This document shows positions 3,201 through 42,774 of a DNA stretch of 64,000 nt, in pieces. How positions within the stretch are numbered: position 1 is the stretch's first letter; the number at the start of each line of letters is the position of its first letter. The notes below the pieces were generated by a model. That model was not told the DNA's origin, did not search any database, and was given only the letters and a program-made list of their open reading frames with translations. Origin of the DNA: an uncultured Clostridia bacterium (GTDB lineage Bacteria > Bacillota > Clostridia > Christensenellales > CAG-314); contig CALVWF010000001.1 in assembly GCA_944364615.1 (NCBI GenBank), positions 193,840 to 257,839 on the forward strand. Direction: 5' to 3'. Position numbers and translations under genes: made by a program.

Positions 3201-4555
3201 TTGTCGATCTCGAAGGGAAGATCCTCGTCCGCCACTACCGAGCCGAACAGTTCGGCATACATTTCATCCGGAACGGCAGCAGGCTGGTCTGCCTGTTCCG
3301 CCGATTTCTTGTAATCTATTATTTGCTGCAAAACGGAAGTGTCCGCTTTGTCGACGAACCTGCACATTTCGGCTATCTGACTGTACGTGTACACATCTTT
3401 GGTACATGTTTCGTCGCAATTGGCGTGCGCAACGTCCGAATGGAACAGTTGCATTCCGGCAAAAGACTTTTCTTCGCCGTTTACCGTCTTGGTCTCGCCG
3501 TCGCTGAACAGCAATGCAAACTGTTCGTATGTTATGTCATTGCCGTCAATCACTCCGTCGCCGTTGACGTCACTGTCGGGGTAAACCGCTCTGAAATCGG
3601 CATATTGCGCCTGATTGTCCCGTGCTCCCTGCATAAAACTGCTTAAAAACGGCATGAGCGTTTTAAGAGAATTGAGTTCGGAAGACTGCATTTCGTCCAG
3701 TTTGACCATCATGTCGTGCATTCCTTCCGCCTGGGAAATGTAGGATTCCAGTTGCTGCAAAGTACACGTTTCGTAGAAATGCACCAACTGCTTTACCTTT
3801 ACAACGGAGTTTACCGTTTCCTGCGGCAAAGGCATACTGACGGGCAACATCATTATGTCGTATACGCTTGTAGCGTCTGAAGCATTTCGAACTGACACCA
3901 CACTTCCGTCGGACATAACCGAACCTATGGGAATGTCAAGGTTTTCCGCAGTCAAAGCCTGCATTATCAGCAGACTGGCAAGATCCAGTCCGTTTAAAGA
4001 TTCTATTTTAATCTGATTTACGGGAGCCCCTACAAGCGACACCGAACCGACGCCTTCTATACCGCTTACGGCGTCTTTCAATGCCTGCGCGTCGGCATTC
4101 AGTTTTTCGAGATCGTCCTCATTATTGTACAATGCAACGGTAGCCACCGCACCGCTGTTCATGTCAACGGCGATTACCGACGGCTCGTAACAGGATGACG
4201 GCAAAGAGATATTCTTTACCGCCTCGGCAACTTCGTCTCTTTTTTTGTCCACGTCAATGCCGTATTCGCAGGTAAGAATTACCATTCCGACATTTTCGTA
4301 GGAATAAGTCTCTGTTTCCACAACGCCCGTAACGGATTTCAGACCGCTTGCCAGTACGCTTGTAACGTCGTCCTGAACCGATTGCGCGCTTGCGCCGGGA
4401 TATACCACCGATACACCGAACATTGGCATCTTGATGTTGGGCAACAATGACGTTGACATGTCCATCGTAGCCAATACTCCGGTGGCAAGCAGTATGATGA
4501 CCAGCACGCATACCGTAACAGGTCTTAACACCGCTGTCTTTATAAATGTCCTCAT
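245..4555 (-). CDS. RND-superfamily (AcrB/HAE-like) efflux permease, 1436 aa, with a ~350-aa insertion in the first extracytoplasmic loop
   Basis: The N-terminus MRTFIKTAVLRPVTV...LLPNIKMPMFGVSVVYPGASAQSVQDDV is typical of AcrB-family permeases. There are two 6-TM bundles with a second large loop. Length is ~1436 aa against ~1000-1050 for the family. No adjacent membrane-fusion protein gene. Confidence 0.85.
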   Translation of the reverse strand: MRTFIKTAVLRPVTVCVLVIILLATGVLATMDMSTSLLPNIKMPMFGVSVVYPGASAQSVQDDVTSVLASGLKSVTGVVETETYSYENVGMVILTCEYGIDVDKKRDEVAEAVKNISLPSSCYEPSVIAVDMNSGAVATVALYNNEDDLEKLNADAQALKDAVSGIEGVGSVSLVGAPVNQIKIESLNGLDLASLLIMQALTAENLDIPIGSVMSDGSVVSVRNASDATSVYDIMMLPVSMPLPQETVNSVVKVKQLVHFYETCTLQQLESYISQAEGMHDMMVKLDEMQSSELNSLKTLMPFLSSFMQGARDNQAQYADFRAVYPDSDVNGDGVIDGNDITYEQFALLFSDGETKTVNGEEKSFAGMQLFHSDVAHANCDETCTKDVYTYSQIAEMCRFVDKADTSVLQQIIDYKKSAEQADQPAAVPDEMYAELFGSVVADEDLPFEIDNRFVSIVRKDNFKSVTALLKEAKLRHVVTEEGEDYGKPVYSNGQLYYSDKDGNNVNASGFLVNNYGWLTDSKGRWIDEQGKVLDLSEQEKIDRYNNLGEYIIFTDEELLELYNATEWDLSMGINLTADTIRFVRVTDFDTSSDGSVLVPLCALGKVSAAKDYTAYAQMNGHISVMVEVYAGSDADTTYVVERVKQAMQEISQDSDNTFFLLDDKSSFISESISNVLSSIIIGGILAILVIYLFVRRIGSSLVISITMPLSVLVALLCIWAMGLTLNMVSLGGLAVGIGMLVDNSIVVLESITKYRDKGHSVFDSCVKGTREVAGSLLASTLTNICVFFPILFTQGLTREIFYDFVWAVLFSISMSLVVAVTVIPSLYHLIYSRNPQKKVVNADGTVTSVSYESRELRRKARMEKAEKKARKMHDSVLRSEKRYAKMVSKALGHKVLICVVALVLFAGSVSLVFMTGMEFMPSVDKGKIEVNIGFTAQDSLEEIYDTTLQVADSIKAELGDDVVKDIAVTVGKQGLAAMEDTGKIRITIDTSLANTSETTQKIREMANKLDLASVSVTEVDGVVAEVTSGMSGMAVTILGKDPEVLSEIALKVEEKLLTDENIVSVINQDAQKTVNYSIVVDKMKCKQLGVDYSNAVMMLRVGISGQTGATISVDGESQDVVVGFSSQSVGSLDDLLNVVVGLGADGSSVTVKDILATDSNGNYLGTGLIKEEVVSVIKMLNDSYEIALDVESYGVDSGTVSKRIEGYVNEILADYTGYTYEEGGVAKYLNEAFDGLVISLIAAFLLLYGVMACQFESLLKPFVVIMSIPFSFTGGFLALVITGTPLSIVSFVGIIMLMGVIVNGAIIMIDKIDMLIEEGMKPEQAVIEGCASRLRPILMTTLTTILALVPLALGLGQGGELMQPMGIVVLGGLLLGTLVTLVLIPCFYCIVKRISFKNYKFNPDEYGKYAETDSDVAGNRESSDLTTVSEQSKQN

Positions 4556-37982: not shown

Positions 37983-38012
37983 TTTACCCCTCTCTAAAGA
38001 GTTTTCGTGGTA

Positions 38013-38041
38013 ATTTTAATACATTGACAGCGCATTGTCAA
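38013..38041 (-). promoter_or_regulatory. SigA-type promoter of leuS (short leader, no T-box)
   Basis: TTGACA (38041-38036), 17 nt, TAAAAT (38018-38013). Confidence 0.55.
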
Positions 38042-38178
38042 GTAATACCGACGGAGCGCCGACAAATGCCTTCGACAGGGCGAATTTGTGAAAAACATAC
38101 CTCACATCATTTACAGGCTGAAATAATTTTGATATAATAACTGAATACAGGTGTACACCGCGACCCAAAGGAGACACA

Positions 38179-38640
38179 ATGAAAATCAAGTACAGAAACG
38201 GAATTTACGACGGCGAACTCAAAGATGGCGTTCCCGACGGCAAAGGTACGCTGAACAATTTAAACGGATCATCCTACAGCGGTCAGTGGAAAAACGGCAG
38301 ATTCGAAGGACAAGGCACCTACCGTTGGACAAACGGTAACATTTACGAAGGTCAATGGTCAAACGGACAGATGCACGGCAAAGGCAAACTGACATTTTAC
38401 GACGGTTCGGTGTACGAGGGACAATTTGCCCGTCACAACTTAAACGGAAACGGAACGATGCGCTACTCCGACGGGCACCGTTACGAAGGACAGTGGAAAG
38501 AGGGCAGACGGCACGGACAGGGAACGATGTTTCACCCGGACGGTACGCAAGACGGAGGCGAATGGATGACGGACGGTCTGCTGTTGGATGACAGCACATT
38601 CGGCAGTTTGTTTTGTCGGGGCGACGAAGACGCCGACTGA
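38179..38640 (+). CDS. MORN-repeat protein (about 5-6 repeats), no signal peptide
   Basis: Contiguous 23-aa units of the form YxGxWxxGxxxGxGT, for example YSGQWKNGRFEGQGTYRWTNGNI. RBS AAAGGAGA. Confidence 0.85.
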   Translation: MKIKYRNGIYDGELKDGVPDGKGTLNNLNGSSYSGQWKNGRFEGQGTYRWTNGNIYEGQWSNGQMHGKGKLTFYDGSVYEGQFARHNLNGNGTMRYSDGHRYEGQWKEGRRHGQGTMFHPDGTQDGGEWMTDGLLLDDSTFGSLFCRGDEDAD

Positions 38641-38675
38641 ATTTTTAGACGTAAAACGATTTTGCGGGAGGGAAT

Positions 38676-39998
38676 ATGAAAATAACTTACACAAACGGTT
38701 ACTACGAAGGAGAGGTACGCAACGGACTGAAACACGGCAAAGGCACTTACAAGTGGAACAACGGCGACAGATATGAAGGACAATGGGTAAACGATGTACG
38801 CACGGGTCAGGGGAAATATTACTGGGCTGACGGTACCGTTTACACGGGAGAATTTCTGAACGACAAAATCTGCGGCAAGGGAACAGAAACTTTCACGGAC
38901 GGACGGCGCTGCGAAGGACAATGGAAAGACGACAAATGCAACGGACAGGGAATTTATTACTTTAACAGCGGAAACAGGTACGAAGGACTGTTTGTCAACG
39001 GCAAATTCAACGGACGAGGTATCTTTTACTTTGTCAACGGCGACAGATACGAAGGACAATTTAAAGACGGTCTGTTCAACGGACAGGGTACAATGTACCA
39101 CCTTAACGGCGGCAGGTATGAAGGACAATGGAAAGACGACAAATGCAACGGACAGGGAATTTATTACTTTAACAGCGGAAACAGGTACGAAGGACTGTTT
39201 GTCAACGGCAAATTCAACGGACGAGGTATCTTTTACTTTGTCAACGGCGACAGATACGAAGGACAGTTTAAAGACGACCTGTTCAACGGACAGGGTACAA
39301 TGTACTACGCTGTCGGAGACAAATACGAAGGTCAATGGAAGGACGACAAGCGTAACGGACAGGGAATTTATTACTTTCGCAGCGGCTCCAGATACGAAGG
39401 TCAGTTTAAAGACGACATTCGCGACGGACAAGGCACCTACTACTTCGTCGGCGGCAACAGGTACGAAGGACTGTTTGTCAACGGCAAATTCAACGGACAA
39501 GGTATATTTTACTTTGCCAACGGCGACAGATACGAAGGTCAGTTTAAAGACGACCTGTTCAACGGACAGGGTACAATGTACCACCTTAACGGCGGCAGGT
39601 ATGAAGGACAATGGAAAGACGACAAATGCAACGGACAGGGAGTCTACTACTTTAACAACGGCGACAAATACGAAGGAGCATGGGTAAACAACGTACGCAC
39701 GGGGCAGGGCATCTACTGCTTTGCCAACGGCGATACCTACGAAGGAGAATTTGCCGACAACAGATTTGACGGATACGGTGTTGTCGACTACTCTTCAAAA
39801 GGCGAAAGATATGCGGGAGAATGGCGAAAGGGAAAGTACAACGGCTCGGGAACGCTTTATCTCAACGACGGAAGCAAGATAACGGCAATCTGGCAAGACG
39901 GCGAAGTCTTTAAAGGACAAAAGTACAATGCGGACGGTACAACCGAGGAATTAACAAAAATATCCGAATCGGAGGGAACAAATGAGACTGAATTTTAA
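38676..39998 (+). CDS. MORN-repeat protein (about 18 contiguous repeats)
   Basis: Almost the whole 440 aa is a gap-free array of 23-aa MORN units (YEGQWKDDKCNGQGIYYFNSGNR...). RBS GGGAGGGAA. Confidence 0.85.
   Translation: MKITYTNGYYEGEVRNGLKHGKGTYKWNNGDRYEGQWVNDVRTGQGKYYWADGTVYTGEFLNDKICGKGTETFTDGRRCEGQWKDDKCNGQGIYYFNSGNRYEGLFVNGKFNGRGIFYFVNGDRYEGQFKDGLFNGQGTMYHLNGGRYEGQWKDDKCNGQGIYYFNSGNRYEGLFVNGKFNGRGIFYFVNGDRYEGQFKDDLFNGQGTMYYAVGDKYEGQWKDDKRNGQGIYYFRSGSRYEGQFKDDIRDGQGTYYFVGGNRYEGLFVNGKFNGQGIFYFANGDRYEGQFKDDLFNGQGTMYHLNGGRYEGQWKDDKCNGQGVYYFNNGDKYEGAWVNNVRTGQGIYCFANGDTYEGEFADNRFDGYGVVDYSSKGERYAGEWRKGKYNGSGTLYLNDGSKITAIWQDGEVFKGQKYNADGTTEELTKISESEGTNETEF
38913..39305 (+). repeat. Near-perfect tandem duplication inside the second MORN gene (period 207 bp = 3 MORN units)
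   Basis: 38913-39098 and 39120-39305 differ at only 3 of 186 positions by hand alignment. A third, more diverged copy lies around 39455-39640. Confidence 0.9.
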
Positions 39999-40998
39999 CA
40001 CGGGTTATTACGAAGGCGAAACGGTGGGAAACATTCCTCACGGAAACGGAACGTTTGTAATGAACAACGGGGACCGTTACAGCGGACAATGGGTCAACGG
40101 AACCATTGCGGGACGAGGAACATTCTTTTTCGTAAACGGCGACAGGTACGAGGGACAGTTTGCCAACGGCAGCATAAACGGCAACGGAACCTATTTTTAC
40201 GCCAACGGCGACAAATACAAAGGACATTGGGTAAACAACGTACGCGCGGGTCAGGGAAAATATTGCTGGGCTGACGGCACCGTTTACACGGGAGAATTTT
40301 CAAACAACAAAGCGTGCGGCAAAGGAGTAAAAACTCTTCCCAACAAAGACAAATACGACGGCATGTGGAAAGACGACTTTATGACGGGAAACGGCACCTA
40401 CTACTTCGCCAACGGCAACAGATGCGAAGGCCATTGGGTAAACAACGTGTGCACGGGGCAGGGAAAGTATTACTGGGCTGACGGCACTGTTTACACGGGA
40501 GAATTTTCAAACAACAGCATTTGCGGTAACGGAACAAAAACTTTCCCCAACGGCAACAGATACGAAGGACAATTTAAAGACGGTCTGTTCAACGGTCAGG
40601 GCACATTGTACTTTGCCGACGGAAGCGTGTACACGGGTATGTTCCGTGAGGATATGTTCAACGGTCAGGGTACAATGAACTACTTTGACGGGGACAGATA
40701 CGAAGGCAACTGGAAGGACGGCGAGCAACACGGGGCAGGTACCATGTACTTTGCCGACGGCTCCAAATACACAGGCAATTTCGTGGACGGATGCAAGGAA
40801 GGACAGGGAACGATGTACTACGCCAACGGCGACAGATATGTCGGCGGATGGCAGACGGACGACAGGTTTGGCGACGCCATATATTATAAAGCGGACGGTA
40901 GCAAATTTATGTGCTACTGGGCGGACGACAAACCGCAAAAAGGAATGTGGTACTATCCCGACGGAACAAGCAAGGAAAGCGACGGAAGGGACATCTGA
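39982..40998 (+). CDS. MORN-repeat protein (about 14 repeats)
   Basis: The ATG lies inside the last codons of the preceding gene (17-nt overlap) and is preceded by GGAGGGAA. The 23-aa MORN register runs throughout. Confidence 0.85.
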   Translation: MRLNFNTGYYEGETVGNIPHGNGTFVMNNGDRYSGQWVNGTIAGRGTFFFVNGDRYEGQFANGSINGNGTYFYANGDKYKGHWVNNVRAGQGKYCWADGTVYTGEFSNNKACGKGVKTLPNKDKYDGMWKDDFMTGNGTYYFANGNRCEGHWVNNVCTGQGKYYWADGTVYTGEFSNNSICGNGTKTFPNGNRYEGQFKDGLFNGQGTLYFADGSVYTGMFREDMFNGQGTMNYFDGDRYEGNWKDGEQHGAGTMYFADGSKYTGNFVDGCKEGQGTMYYANGDRYVGGWQTDDRFGDAIYYKADGSKFMCYWADDKPQKGMWYYPDGTSKESDGRDI

Positions 40999-41250
40999 CG
41001 TTGCGTTTACACCGAAAATTCGCAGGGTTTTCCGACTTTGCCGACAGGTGAACTGCACCTTTCGTTACAGTGTTGTACGCAGTTAAAACATTTTACCCTT
41101 TTAACCGCACAATTGCGCCCGAAGGCATGTAAATAAAGCGGTACGACGCGGTACAAGTGAATTCTGCCGACGTTTTTCACAATTGCAGCCTGTCGCTTTT
41201 TTTGAATTTTACGAAAAGTTTAATCAAATGTAAACATTACAAGAAATACA

Positions 41251-41282
41251 AAAGCCCGAAGAATGTTCTTCGGGCTTTTGTA
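41251..41282. terminator. Bidirectional terminator between the MORN cluster and the protease gene
   Basis: gcccgaagaa / ttcttcgggc stem, flanked by A-rich and T-rich runs. Confidence 0.6.
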
Positions 41283-41448: not shown

Positions 41449-42468
41449 CTACCGGGCGGAATAAGCGCGTTCGGTGGTTGTGTAGTACTTGCACTGCACT
41501 GTTCCCGTGTAGGTGTTGAAGGAGCCGTCAAGCAGACTTCCCGCCTTGTAACTGCCGTCAGCAAGTTCGTCAAGGAAGTTCAGCACTTCGTAAACGGGTA
41601 TTGCGTAGTTCATGTTTTCTACGTTTTCTTCGATGATTTTAAAGGTGTTTACACCTATCACCGCGCCGTAAGCGTTGCACAGCGGACCTCCGGAGTTTCC
41701 GGGATTGACTGTTGCGTCTGTCTGAACGGCCTTGGTGGTCGTTCCGTCGTCATTGTCGAAAATGCGGTAAGGCGCGGAAACAACCCCCTGTGTTACGGAT
41801 ATTCCGTAACCGTTGGCATTTCCTATCGCTATTGCCGTTTCACCGTAGTAAAGAGAAGCCCCCTCGGAAAAATCCGCCGAATAGTCGAAAAACGTAGCAT
41901 ATACGAAATCGTCCGAAAGACTGTAACTCTGTCCCGACTGAGTTGTTCCTTCACGCATTATTTTGAGTAAAGCAAGGTCCAACTGCTCATCGTAGGCTAT
42001 AACTTCGCACTGCAACATTACGGTGCTGTCGGCAACGTTGGCGTAAACCTTACGGCTGATATAACTGAAATTTTCAAACAAATCGTCGTCTTCCAACGTA
42101 ATTACATGGGCATTTGTCAACATGTAACCGTCTTCGTTGACTACAAAACCCGTACCCTGATTGGTCGCTTCGCTCGTGCGCTGTTCCGAACCCCACATTC
42201 CTCTGACGCTGTAAGAGTATTGCAATTCCACCGTCAGTTCGTAGGTTGCAGGCATCACGATAGAGGCAACGGTCTGCGCCACTTCGTAAGAATTGATGCT
42301 GCCGTAATCGGTAACCGTGGAAGGAGCGGTATTGTGTATTTCAAGACGGTTGCCTGAAGAAGAAATACCCGGTTCGATTCCGTTAAACAGTACCGAGCAT
42401 CCCGTCAATGCCAGCATTACAACCGCCATCGCTAAAGATAACGTTAAAACAAGTGTTTTCTTTTTCAT
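41449..42468 (-). CDS. Trypsin-like serine protease (S1C/HtrA-like catalytic domain, no obvious PDZ), lipoprotein
   Basis: Catalytic triad contexts TNAHVI, DLALLKI and GNSGGPL. Lipobox MAVVMLALTGC. Start taken as the ATG at 42468 after GAGGTG. Confidence 0.8.
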   Translation of the reverse strand: MKKKTLVLTLSLAMAVVMLALTGCSVLFNGIEPGISSSGNRLEIHNTAPSTVTDYGSINSYEVAQTVASIVMPATYELTVELQYSYSVRGMWGSEQRTSEATNQGTGFVVNEDGYMLTNAHVITLEDDDLFENFSYISRKVYANVADSTVMLQCEVIAYDEQLDLALLKIMREGTTQSGQSYSLSDDFVYATFFDYSADFSEGASLYYGETAIAIGNANGYGISVTQGVVSAPYRIFDNDDGTTTKAVQTDATVNPGNSGGPLCNAYGAVIGVNTFKIIEENVENMNYAIPVYEVLNFLDELADGSYKAGSLLDGSFNTYTGTVQCKYYTTTERAYSAR

Positions 42469-42774
42469 GGTTAACACCTCACTTCTTGCGTCTATAATAC
42501 AACGCTTTTCTTAAAAAAACTTTTAGATTTACTTGTATTTTTTACTTTTTTCTTTCAATTTAGTTAAAGATTCAAATACCTGTACCTTGATATTTTACTC
42601 CTTTTTTGCCCATTAAACAACGAATTTAAATCAAATACATATATTTAATTTGCGCGTTTTCCCTTTTATATAAAAACAATTTTGCAAGGCGTTTTGACGG
42701 AAATTTTTATTTTTTTTACAGTACTTTTTCAAATAAAACTTCATTTTACTTTCTGCCGATGACAATTTACGACA

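Follow-up and report, generated by a model that had tools for sequence, protein, structure and literature searches.

The eukaryotic MORN1 proteins of T. brucei, T. gondii and P. falciparum are built only of consecutive 23-residue MORN repeats and are cytoplasmic and acidic (Sajko et al. 2020, PMC7725318). In the sole biochemical study of such wall-to-wall MORN proteins, MORN1 dimerised in a tail-to-tail fashion through the repeats at its C-terminus, oligomerised via repeat 1 and did not bind membranes (PMC7725318). Two other eukaryotic MORN proteins are known in complex with a partner, MORN4 with Myo3a (6jle) and junctophilin with CaV1.1 (7rxq), and serve as a model for peptide binding in the groove. 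The bacterial PF02493 proteins (labelled COG4642 in one source) belong to the same repeat family as the genes described below and are of unknown function; we found no paper describing the function of a prokaryotic MORN protein. The MORN2 (PF07661) expansions of Fusobacterium and Helicobacter, also of unknown function, share with our genes the local tandem duplication, the repeat-driven diversification and a gut-associated host (McGuire et al. 2014, PMC4222103).

A trio of MORN genes next to leuS

We analysed a DNA stretch of 64,000 nucleotides (the window) from an uncultured human-gut Clostridia bacterium that contains three neighbouring MORN genes, named A, B and C, all on the plus strand (Table 1). 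They occupy the slot between leuS and a convergent gene for a Trypsin_2 lipoprotein protease. The three open reading frames of the original prediction were found at the same positions, each preceded by its own Shine-Dalgarno sequence (GGAG for A, GGGAGGG for B and GGAGGG for C) 5-7 nt upstream of the ATG. A and B are separated by a gap of 35 nt, and the start of C overlaps the end of B by 17 nt (39982-39998), as had been noted. The neighbourhood, with leuS, GNAT, the Trypsin_2 lipoprotein and ABC exporters, gave no functional hint, and no effector, toxin, recombinase or mobile-element gene adjoins the trio.

Table 1. Genes and predicted transcription signals of the MORN locus (positions in the window)
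Feature	Position	Strand	Description
Predicted sigma-70 promoter of the trio	38110-38138	+	TTTACA-17 nt-TATAAT with TG extension; 11/12 matches
Gene A	38179-38640	+	153 aa; N-cap, 5 canonical MORN units, 1 degenerate unit, conserved acidic tail
Gene B	38676-39998	+	440 aa; N-cap, ~18 in-register MORN units, 17-residue acidic tail
Gene B variable core, units 2-11	38772-39461	+	Holds the 207-bp three-unit super-repeat; reshuffled between strains
Gene C	39982-40998	+	338 aa; N-cap, ~14 MORN units
Predicted strong bidirectional intrinsic terminator	~41248-41281		ACAAAAGCCCGAAGAA / TTCTTCGGGCTTTTGT; 17-bp stem, A-run upstream, U-run downstream

The sigma-70-like promoter predicted before A was also found upstream of the A orthologue in the sister species G001 (L013 7790-7762), and the terminator is common to the trio and the convergent protease gene. 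Since the promoter is conserved, the spacing is tight and a single strong terminator follows, A, B and C are probably one operon; the co-transcription proposed in the original prediction is thus plausible from these predicted signals. The terminator was the only candidate structured RNA in the 450 nt after C, where the weak Rfam matches were terminator-like only.

The codon usage of the trio is native. The scores of A, B and C lie at the 91st-94th percentile of 798 long open reading frames and equal that of leuS. A recent horizontal acquisition is unsupported, given this native codon usage and the lack of a donor (best database identities 35-46%, at the repeat level only).

Pfam confirmed that the products are pure, gap-free arrays of about 6, 18 and 14 MORN units of 23 residues. 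PF02493 matched A with E=1.3e-35 (4 stretches, 119.5 bits), B with 1.1e-108 (16 stretches, 349.2 bits) and C with 4.1e-69 (11 stretches, 224.8 bits), compared to a Pfam gathering threshold of 22.5. Canonical and degenerate units number 5 and 1 in A, 16-17 and 1-2 in B, and 13 and 1 in C. Counted in the 23-residue register, which is unbroken except for one slip of 1 residue near the C-terminus of B, this gives ~38 hairpins, and the earlier total of ~37 was correct. G3 and G12 occur in every one of the 34 canonical units, and G14 in nearly all of them. All three proteins open with the N-cap M[KR][IL]x[YF]xNGxY[ED]GE, and A ends in the tail motif W..DGLL.D..FG.LF...D.D.D. Searches with Pfam, NCBIfam, PADLOC and PHROGs found only MORN. 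PF07661 (MORN_2/YwqK-type, COG2849) had no match in A-C at E<=0.01, which places the trio in a different Pfam family from the MORN2 expansions, and the defence-system protein models of PADLOC-DB 2.0 matched none of the three. Weak matches to DUF3048_C, fosA7 and VcdP were sub-threshold noise.

The N-termini (MKIKYRNG in A, MKITYTNG in B and MRLNFNTG in C) agree with the earlier statement that the proteins are leaderless. With a maximum of 0.3 in any 19-residue Kyte-Doolittle window, a GRAVY of about -1 and an acidic pI of 5.2-5.7, they have no signal peptide, lipobox or transmembrane segment, and we infer that all three are cytoplasmic.

The PF02493-type superfamily is very large, comprising 79,717 clusters of 50% identity at E<=1e-3 in a search with gene A. 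Most bacterial relatives have a signal peptide, a lipobox, a membrane anchor or an added domain, whereas the trio has none, and only 5 of the 240 matches scanned are leaderless and wall-to-wall MORN. The earlier statement that the repeats of bacteria usually occur together with another domain was only half right: about half of the nearest database relatives are MORN-only by Pfam. Adjacent MORN genes occurred in 4 of 27 long loci, three consecutive ones in none of the 27. The trio is an uncharacterised but ordinary repeat-protein expansion within this functionally unstudied family.

Predicted fold and a possible protein-binding function

The original prediction had proposed modelling the three products. 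The single-chain AlphaFold models of A (pLDDT 91.3) and C (pLDDT 96.3) consist of beta-hairpins, in A at residues 1-130, followed by a tail of low confidence, and in C throughout. Their best Foldseek matches were the MORN1 structures 6t69, 6t4r and 6t4d (E 1e-13 to 1e-19, rmsd 1.1-1.8 Å, TM up to 0.91 on the target). At this rmsd the predicted fold superposes on MORN1 with 32-39% identity; 6t68 and 6t6q are further MORN1 structures. The arrays are therefore predicted with high confidence to form one elongated, single-layer antiparallel beta-hairpin sheet like that of MORN1. From the beta-sheet geometry, A, B and C would be rods of roughly 6, 17 and 13 nm. The same hairpin sheet and aromatic groove are present in the MORN4 and junctophilin complexes (Foldseek E 1e-7 to 1e-12). 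Unlike the trio, junctophilins possess a backbone helix and are anchored in the membrane.

The C-terminal units diverge in the trio as in MORN1, where these units are the dimer interface. However, the trio is bacterial and has no cytoskeletal context, it comprises three paralogues (6, 18 and 14 units) where MORN1 is a single 15-unit protein, and the unit order of B varies between strains. Orthology to MORN1 is not demonstrable, because the similarity is at the repeat level only. In addition, the 29 PDB sequences matching gene C include no prokaryotic one, and all MORN structures solved are from eukaryotes, so that the transfer of a mechanism to the trio is an extrapolation.

By analogy, we give an even chance to the reading that A-C are cytoplasmic, self-associating, protein-binding rods of the MORN1 type, encoded by native and probably co-transcribed genes. 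In analogy to MORN1, MORN4 and junctophilin, such rods would act as protein-protein interaction modules rather than as binders of membrane or cell wall. Partner peptides might bind along an aromatic groove that the YxGxW and [YF]-x-[FY] positions create, and the rods might self-associate via their divergent C-terminal capping units, the latter by pure analogy. The conserved function would be carried by A through its conserved tail motif, and B and C would be dispensable additions that extend or diversify the binding surface. If this scaffold reading is true, bacteria have in the trio an analogue of the cytoskeletal rods of MORN1. MORN-Trypsin_2 fusions found elsewhere had suggested a link to the convergent protease. 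We set such a functional link aside, since the protease is exported, unlike A-C, and since their adjacency amounts only to synteny within one genus.

Variation between species and strains

The sister species G001 has A alone, in the same slot between leuS and the protease gene (syntenic, 62% identity). The dN/dS between the two A genes is ~0.24, which indicates that A is under purifying selection in the genus. A is the sole member shared with the sister species, B and C being species-specific and paralogues of each other. In an exhaustive HMMER search with A as the query, all proteins retrieved were long and multi-repeat and none was another A orthologue, and at 80 more distant related leuS loci no MORN open reading frame lay within 4 kb. 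MORN genes of any kind were present in 2 of 24 family genomes and 39 of 300 class genomes. The trio is thus not conserved as a unit. The original prediction had suggested a heteromeric scaffold; because G001 has only A, an obligate A-B-C heteromer is unlikely to be the core function.

Among the same-species assemblies the gene number is constant, whereas it differs between sister species. The same three genes were found in the metagenome assemblies L018, L020 and L026, and also in L019 except for a scaffold gap in B. Gene B contains a 207-bp tandem repeat of three units in 3.2 copies (TRF), and units B4-6, B7-9 and B12-14 are 94-100% identical at the nucleotide level. The B allele of L026 differs from that of the window only in units 2-11, where half-units of the window's allele are combined into a mosaic. 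This mosaic could be assembled since its longest internal exact repeat is only 49 nt. The 15-unit allele of L020 may be real, or else the 207-bp duplication may have collapsed during assembly. Between strains, A and C hardly change; C of L026 is 99.7% identical in nucleotides, with 2 synonymous and 1 non-synonymous codon differences. Judged from these alleles, the middle units of B are exchanged between strains by intragenic recombination, and such reshuffling is not expected for a simple housekeeping scaffold. The locus offers a small, clean test set for what a bacterial MORN array binds, with a genus-conserved core gene of 153 aa, two long species-specific paralogues and natural B alleles whose sole difference is how their middle units are ordered.

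Alternative functions and origins

The main alternative is that the leaderless arrays, above all the recombining B, are stand-alone recognition modules in microbial conflict, that is sensors, decoys or immunity-type proteins against phage proteins or toxins that competitors deliver. In this they would resemble the repeat-based sensors that are joined to a TIR or caspase effector, or else the paralogues arranged in tandem at polyimmunity loci. Fusions to domains of the effector type (caspase or C13 peptidase, TIR, trypsin, kinase) occur in many of the close MORN relatives. The leaderless protein P0030 joins the same N-cap, MRIDYNNGYYIGE, and a long array of ~11 MORN units to a ThsB-type TIR domain; P0032, P0035 and P0096 have the order TIR-MORN. 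P0074 is a MORN-only protein with the same N-cap, and its gene adjoins a DMP19 (PF14300) gene. The patchy distribution in class and family, the varying gene number between sister species and the mosaic core of B fit a role in conflict as well. Tandem same-strand genes with short gaps are typical of polyimmunity loci (Zhang et al. 2012; PMC3482391); in the trio, this arrangement is present, but the number of genes varies between species and not among same-species assemblies.

Several observations lower the probability of such a role. The trio lacks the ThsB-like TIR effector domain of the MORN-TIR proteins and any effector neighbour; no LXG or other polymorphic toxin gene lies beside it, its neighbours being leuS and the Trypsin_2 lipoprotein. 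A, B and C have no PADLOC match and no match to the YwqK-type PF07661, MORN is not mentioned among the immunity families of PMC3482391, and A and C hardly vary between strains. Moreover, P0030 and P0074 are two anecdotal relatives rather than a survey. We consider a function in conflict unlikely, although it deserves to be weighed. Somewhat more doubtful still is its specific form, in which N-capped leaderless arrays would form a recognition layer of their own, corresponding to the MORN-TIR and MORN-caspase fusions but without an effector, and recombination in B would make new binding surfaces between strains. If the conflict reading is true, MORN takes its place beside LRR, WD40, TPR and ankyrin among the repeats that serve bacteria as sensors. 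A phage origin of the trio was rejected: PHROGs does include a single MORN family, of unknown function, but only 1 weak match was found in 50,697 phage records.

The original prediction had also considered lipid or peptidoglycan binding. It is improbable that A-C bind lipid or the cell wall, either after non-classical exit from the cytoplasm or by docking to the membrane's inner face. Relatives do point towards the envelope. A signal-peptide-like or transmembrane/anchor-like N-terminus was seen in 109 of 240 sampled bacterial MORN proteins, and those of the class Clostridia are mostly lipoproteins, membrane-anchored proteins or proteins with a signal peptide and a non-MORN N-terminal region. 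LysM, SPOR, SH3_3, PG_binding_1 or TonB_C domains are present in some relatives. The MORN2 proteins of Fusobacterium have signal peptides in 87% of the cases and MORN2 proteins cluster with adhesins, whereas the trio is leaderless among housekeeping genes (PMC4222103). Peptidoglycan binding is disfavoured because A-C have no export signal and the host genome (93% complete) has no WXG100 or LXG match. Lipid binding is disfavoured as well, since the acidic A-C fit poorly to anionic lipid head groups and MORN1 showed no membrane binding in vitro (PMC7725318).

Least probable, and largely refuted, is an artefact or decay, in which the open reading frames are fragments of one frameshifted gene or non-functional drifting repeat DNA: an exact internal repeat of 146 nt in B does break several short-read assemblies and a related MORN gene of G023 has a frameshift, but in the trio all frames are intact, every gene opens with the shared cap and its own Shine-Dalgarno sequence, and the gene boundaries are identical in the other assemblies. 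These features, together with the non-MORN tail of A that is conserved in the sister species, whose only member is A, speak against a frameshift or fragment origin and support three separate genes, as originally described. The low dN/dS of A, the few codon differences in C and a codon usage as adapted as that of leuS likewise speak for functional genes.

Gene content and transcription signals

The genes A, B and C, adjacent on the plus strand beside leuS, were found exactly where the original prediction had placed them, and their PF02493 arrays were confirmed. A Pfam search detected no domain besides the MORN repeat, and NCBIfam, PADLOC and PHROGs added nothing except one phage MORN family. 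In a 23-residue register, the units keep their phase from residue 10 up to the caps at the C-terminus, with 5 canonical and 1 degenerate unit in A, about 18 in B and about 14 in C. Within the unit, G3 and G12 never vary, and G14, Y1 and G21 hardly do. With GRAVY at about -1, a maximum Kyte-Doolittle value over 19 residues of 0.3 and a pI of 5.2-5.7, all three products are hydrophilic and acidic; hydropathy and sequence revealed neither a signal peptide nor a lipobox or TM segment, which bears out the proposed pure arrays without an export signal.

AlphaFold2 models of A (pLDDT 91.3, uncertain only in the last 20 residues) and C (pLDDT 96.3) are beta-hairpin sheets without interruption. Foldseek placed MORN1 crystal structures from Toxoplasma, Trypanosoma and Plasmodium at the top (E 1e-13 to 1e-19, rmsd 1.1-1.8 A), followed by radial-spoke and other axonemal MORN proteins, junctophilins, MORN4 and SET7/9. 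By sequence, C matched 29 PDB entries, every one of them eukaryotic, so there is no prokaryote among its solved relatives.

All three proteins start with the half-unit cap M[KR][IL]x[YF]xNGxY[ED]GE, and A ends in an acidic non-MORN tail. A ribosome-binding sequence precedes every ATG, and the start of C overlaps the end of B by 17 nt. The layout was found again in metagenome assemblies of other samples, in four copies of the same species: L018 matches the window at 100% across 3222 nt, L019 keeps the layout with a 100-N scaffold gap within B, and the others are L020 and L026, the latter on a contig that bears the title human gut metagenome. The putative A promoter is conserved upstream of the A orthologue in the sister species G001. 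The hairpin terminator is the sole strong one and is common to the trio and the convergent protease gene; besides it, Rfam detected nothing 3' of C. These predicted signals fit a single transcript, and A, B and C probably form one operon, in line with the co-transcription suggested earlier. A frameshift fusion into one gene, which had been named as a possible objection, was rejected because of the common caps, the A tail, the separate ribosome-binding sequences, the recurring layout and the regulatory signals.

Features of the trio and its surroundings
Feature	Position	Strand	Remarks
Divergent region	37983-38178		196 nt; back-to-back promoter-like sites for leuS and A
Promoter TTTACA-17-TGnTATAAT	38110-38138	+	predicted by sequence match, upstream of A
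Gene A	38179-38640	+	153 aa; PF02493 E = 1.3e-35
Gene B	38676-39998	+	440 aa; PF02493 E = 1.1e-108
Three-unit super-repeat in B	38912-39571		207 bp per copy, tandem
Gene C	39982-40998	+	338 aa; PF02493 E = 4.1e-69
Bidirectional hairpin terminator	~41248-41281	both	predicted; 250 nt 3' of C
Trypsin_2 lipoprotein	41449-42477	-	lipobox LTGCS; convergent neighbour of the trio

Both promoter-like sites of the leuS-A divergent region are conserved in G001, and no Rfam match to a T-box leader was found upstream of leuS. Long antisense open reading frames across the trio (38532-39611, 39910-40227 and 40507-41058, all on the minus strand, up to 359 aa) are not genes; they arise as by-products of a codon composition that is itself repetitive.

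Distribution and evolution

MORN arrays are very common, with 79,717 clusters at 50% identity matching A at E<=1e-3, and the trio belongs to a known but uncharacterised MORN family. In about half of its nearest relatives Pfam detected MORN alone; the others are fusions with caspase or C13, TIR, trypsin, kinase, LysM, SPOR, SH3 or TonB_C. A signal-peptide- or anchor-like N-terminus was seen in 109 of 240 relatives, and leaderless, wall-to-wall proteins like those of the trio numbered 5 of the 240. Most MORN proteins of other genomes in the class are lipoproteins, have a TM anchor, or combine a signal peptide with a non-MORN N-terminal region. Two adjacent MORN genes occurred in 4 of 27 long metagenome loci, three in none.

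The host genome (1.69 Mb, 14 contigs, 93% complete) has 31 PF02493 matches, every one inside the trio. In a 300-genome sample of the class, where 39 genomes had a MORN match, this full count was the highest and the next was 21. Host LeuS is 75-77% identical to that of uncultured Clostridia MAGs and 60-67% to that of Christensenellaceae MAGs. G001 has the same gene order as the window (two ABC exporters, Trypsin_2 lipoprotein, MORN gene, leuS), with one 156-aa A orthologue on an uninterrupted contig. The A proteins are 62% identical (LeuS 86%) and share the tail motif W..DGLL.D..FG.LF. With dN/dS at about 0.24 and dS saturated, the sequence comparison shows purifying selection on A. G001 has A alone, a MORN match of any kind occurs in just 2 of 24 genomes of the family, and a MORN ORF within 4 kb was seen at 0 of 80 leuS loci from related species. 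A was therefore fixed in the genus, B and C are specific to the host species, and the triplet is not the conserved unit that had been considered.

B and C are paralogues with unit pairs of up to 87% nucleotide identity (B2/C4, B6/C9), whereas A units reach just 57-67% with those of B and C. No database protein is closer to the trio than 35-46%, the level of repeat similarity. Synonymous codon usage of the three genes lies at the 91st-94th percentile among 798 long ORFs, the same as leuS, so they are long-resident or fully ameliorated.

The Trypsin_2 lipoprotein adjoins the MORN gene in G001 too. Its PADLOC matches (RT-Protease_XI and others) are to the protease domain alone, and MORN-Trypsin_2 fusions are known elsewhere (database proteins P0008, P0021 and P0053).

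The recombining core of B

The most noteworthy trait of the trio is the recombining core of B. Per unit, identity between copies of its super-repeat reaches 100%, and the 146-nt longest exact repeat, inside the tandem duplication, explains why several short-read contigs end within B. Between L026 and the window, leuS and A are each 98.7% and C 99.7% identical; B has equal length and, in fixed register, just 90% identity. Units 1 and 12-18 show no differences or no more than 2 nt, and it is units 2-11 that diverge. Each of the divergent units can be pieced together almost perfectly, as a mosaic, from half-units elsewhere in window B; unit 2, for instance, combines the 5' half of B7 (36/36) with the 3' half of B10 (32/33). 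The B alleles therefore differ through intragenic recombination or gene conversion and not point mutation. Since no exact repeat longer than 49 nt exists inside the L026 allele, an assembly artefact is unlikely. The L020 allele has 15 units, exactly one 207-bp block fewer than the window; it may be genuine or result from a collapsed assembly.

Possible function and further loci

MORN1 proteins of the wall-to-wall type serve as modules for protein-protein interaction: they form tail-to-tail dimers via the C-terminal repeats and oligomers via repeat 1, and show no membrane binding (PMC7725318). The reading that we favour from this literature, with about even confidence, is that the trio proteins would be cytoplasmic, self-associating rods that bind peptides, with the conserved role falling to A while B and C would be extensions that the cell can dispense with. 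As G001 has A alone, the core function is unlikely to be that of an obligate A-B-C heteromer. WXG100 and LXG matches were absent from the host genome at its 93% completeness.

Rather improbable is conflict-related recognition by the arrays. Effector fusions of MORN arrays are numerous, the N-cap recurs in P0030 (a ThsB-type TIR fusion) and P0074 (encoded beside a DMP19 gene), and the patchy distribution and the strain-level mosaicism of B would fit. However, A, B and C have no PADLOC or PF07661 match, no effector or toxin gene lies next to them, and MORN is not in a catalogue of immunity families (PMC3482391). The lipid or peptidoglycan binding suggested originally is very doubtful, as is any envelope role, since the proteins are acidic and lack an export signal; of that interpretation, the pure arrays and the probable operon stand, but not the conserved unit or this binding. 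That the trio is an artefact or in decay is scarcely credible.

P0030 (L119 2494-3813) is leaderless, with about 11 MORN units fused to its TIR domain; its gene adjoins a ParA-like ATPase gene, with a Coat_F gene nearby. PADLOC has no dedicated model for this architecture, and the TIR part alone matches (ThsB, SAVED_TIR). P0074 (L117 4603-5940; 445 aa) is MORN-only and leaderless with an N-terminus much like that of C, and its gene adjoins the DMP19 (PF14300) gene and an ADP-ribosylglycohydrolase gene. In G023, a genome of another genus of the family, a leaderless MORN gene with the trio-type N-cap (MKKVYDNGYYVGD; L014 4160-5919) lies directly 3' of a 629-aa gene that reads as a radical-SAM enzyme; a 1-nt frameshift near 4500 marks a pseudogene or a MAG error. 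Also encoded in G023 is a 594-aa protein (L015 1497-3281, minus strand) that has a zinc-ribbon-like CxxC pair at its N-terminus, about 13 MORN units, and a region resembling leucine-rich repeats at its C-terminus.
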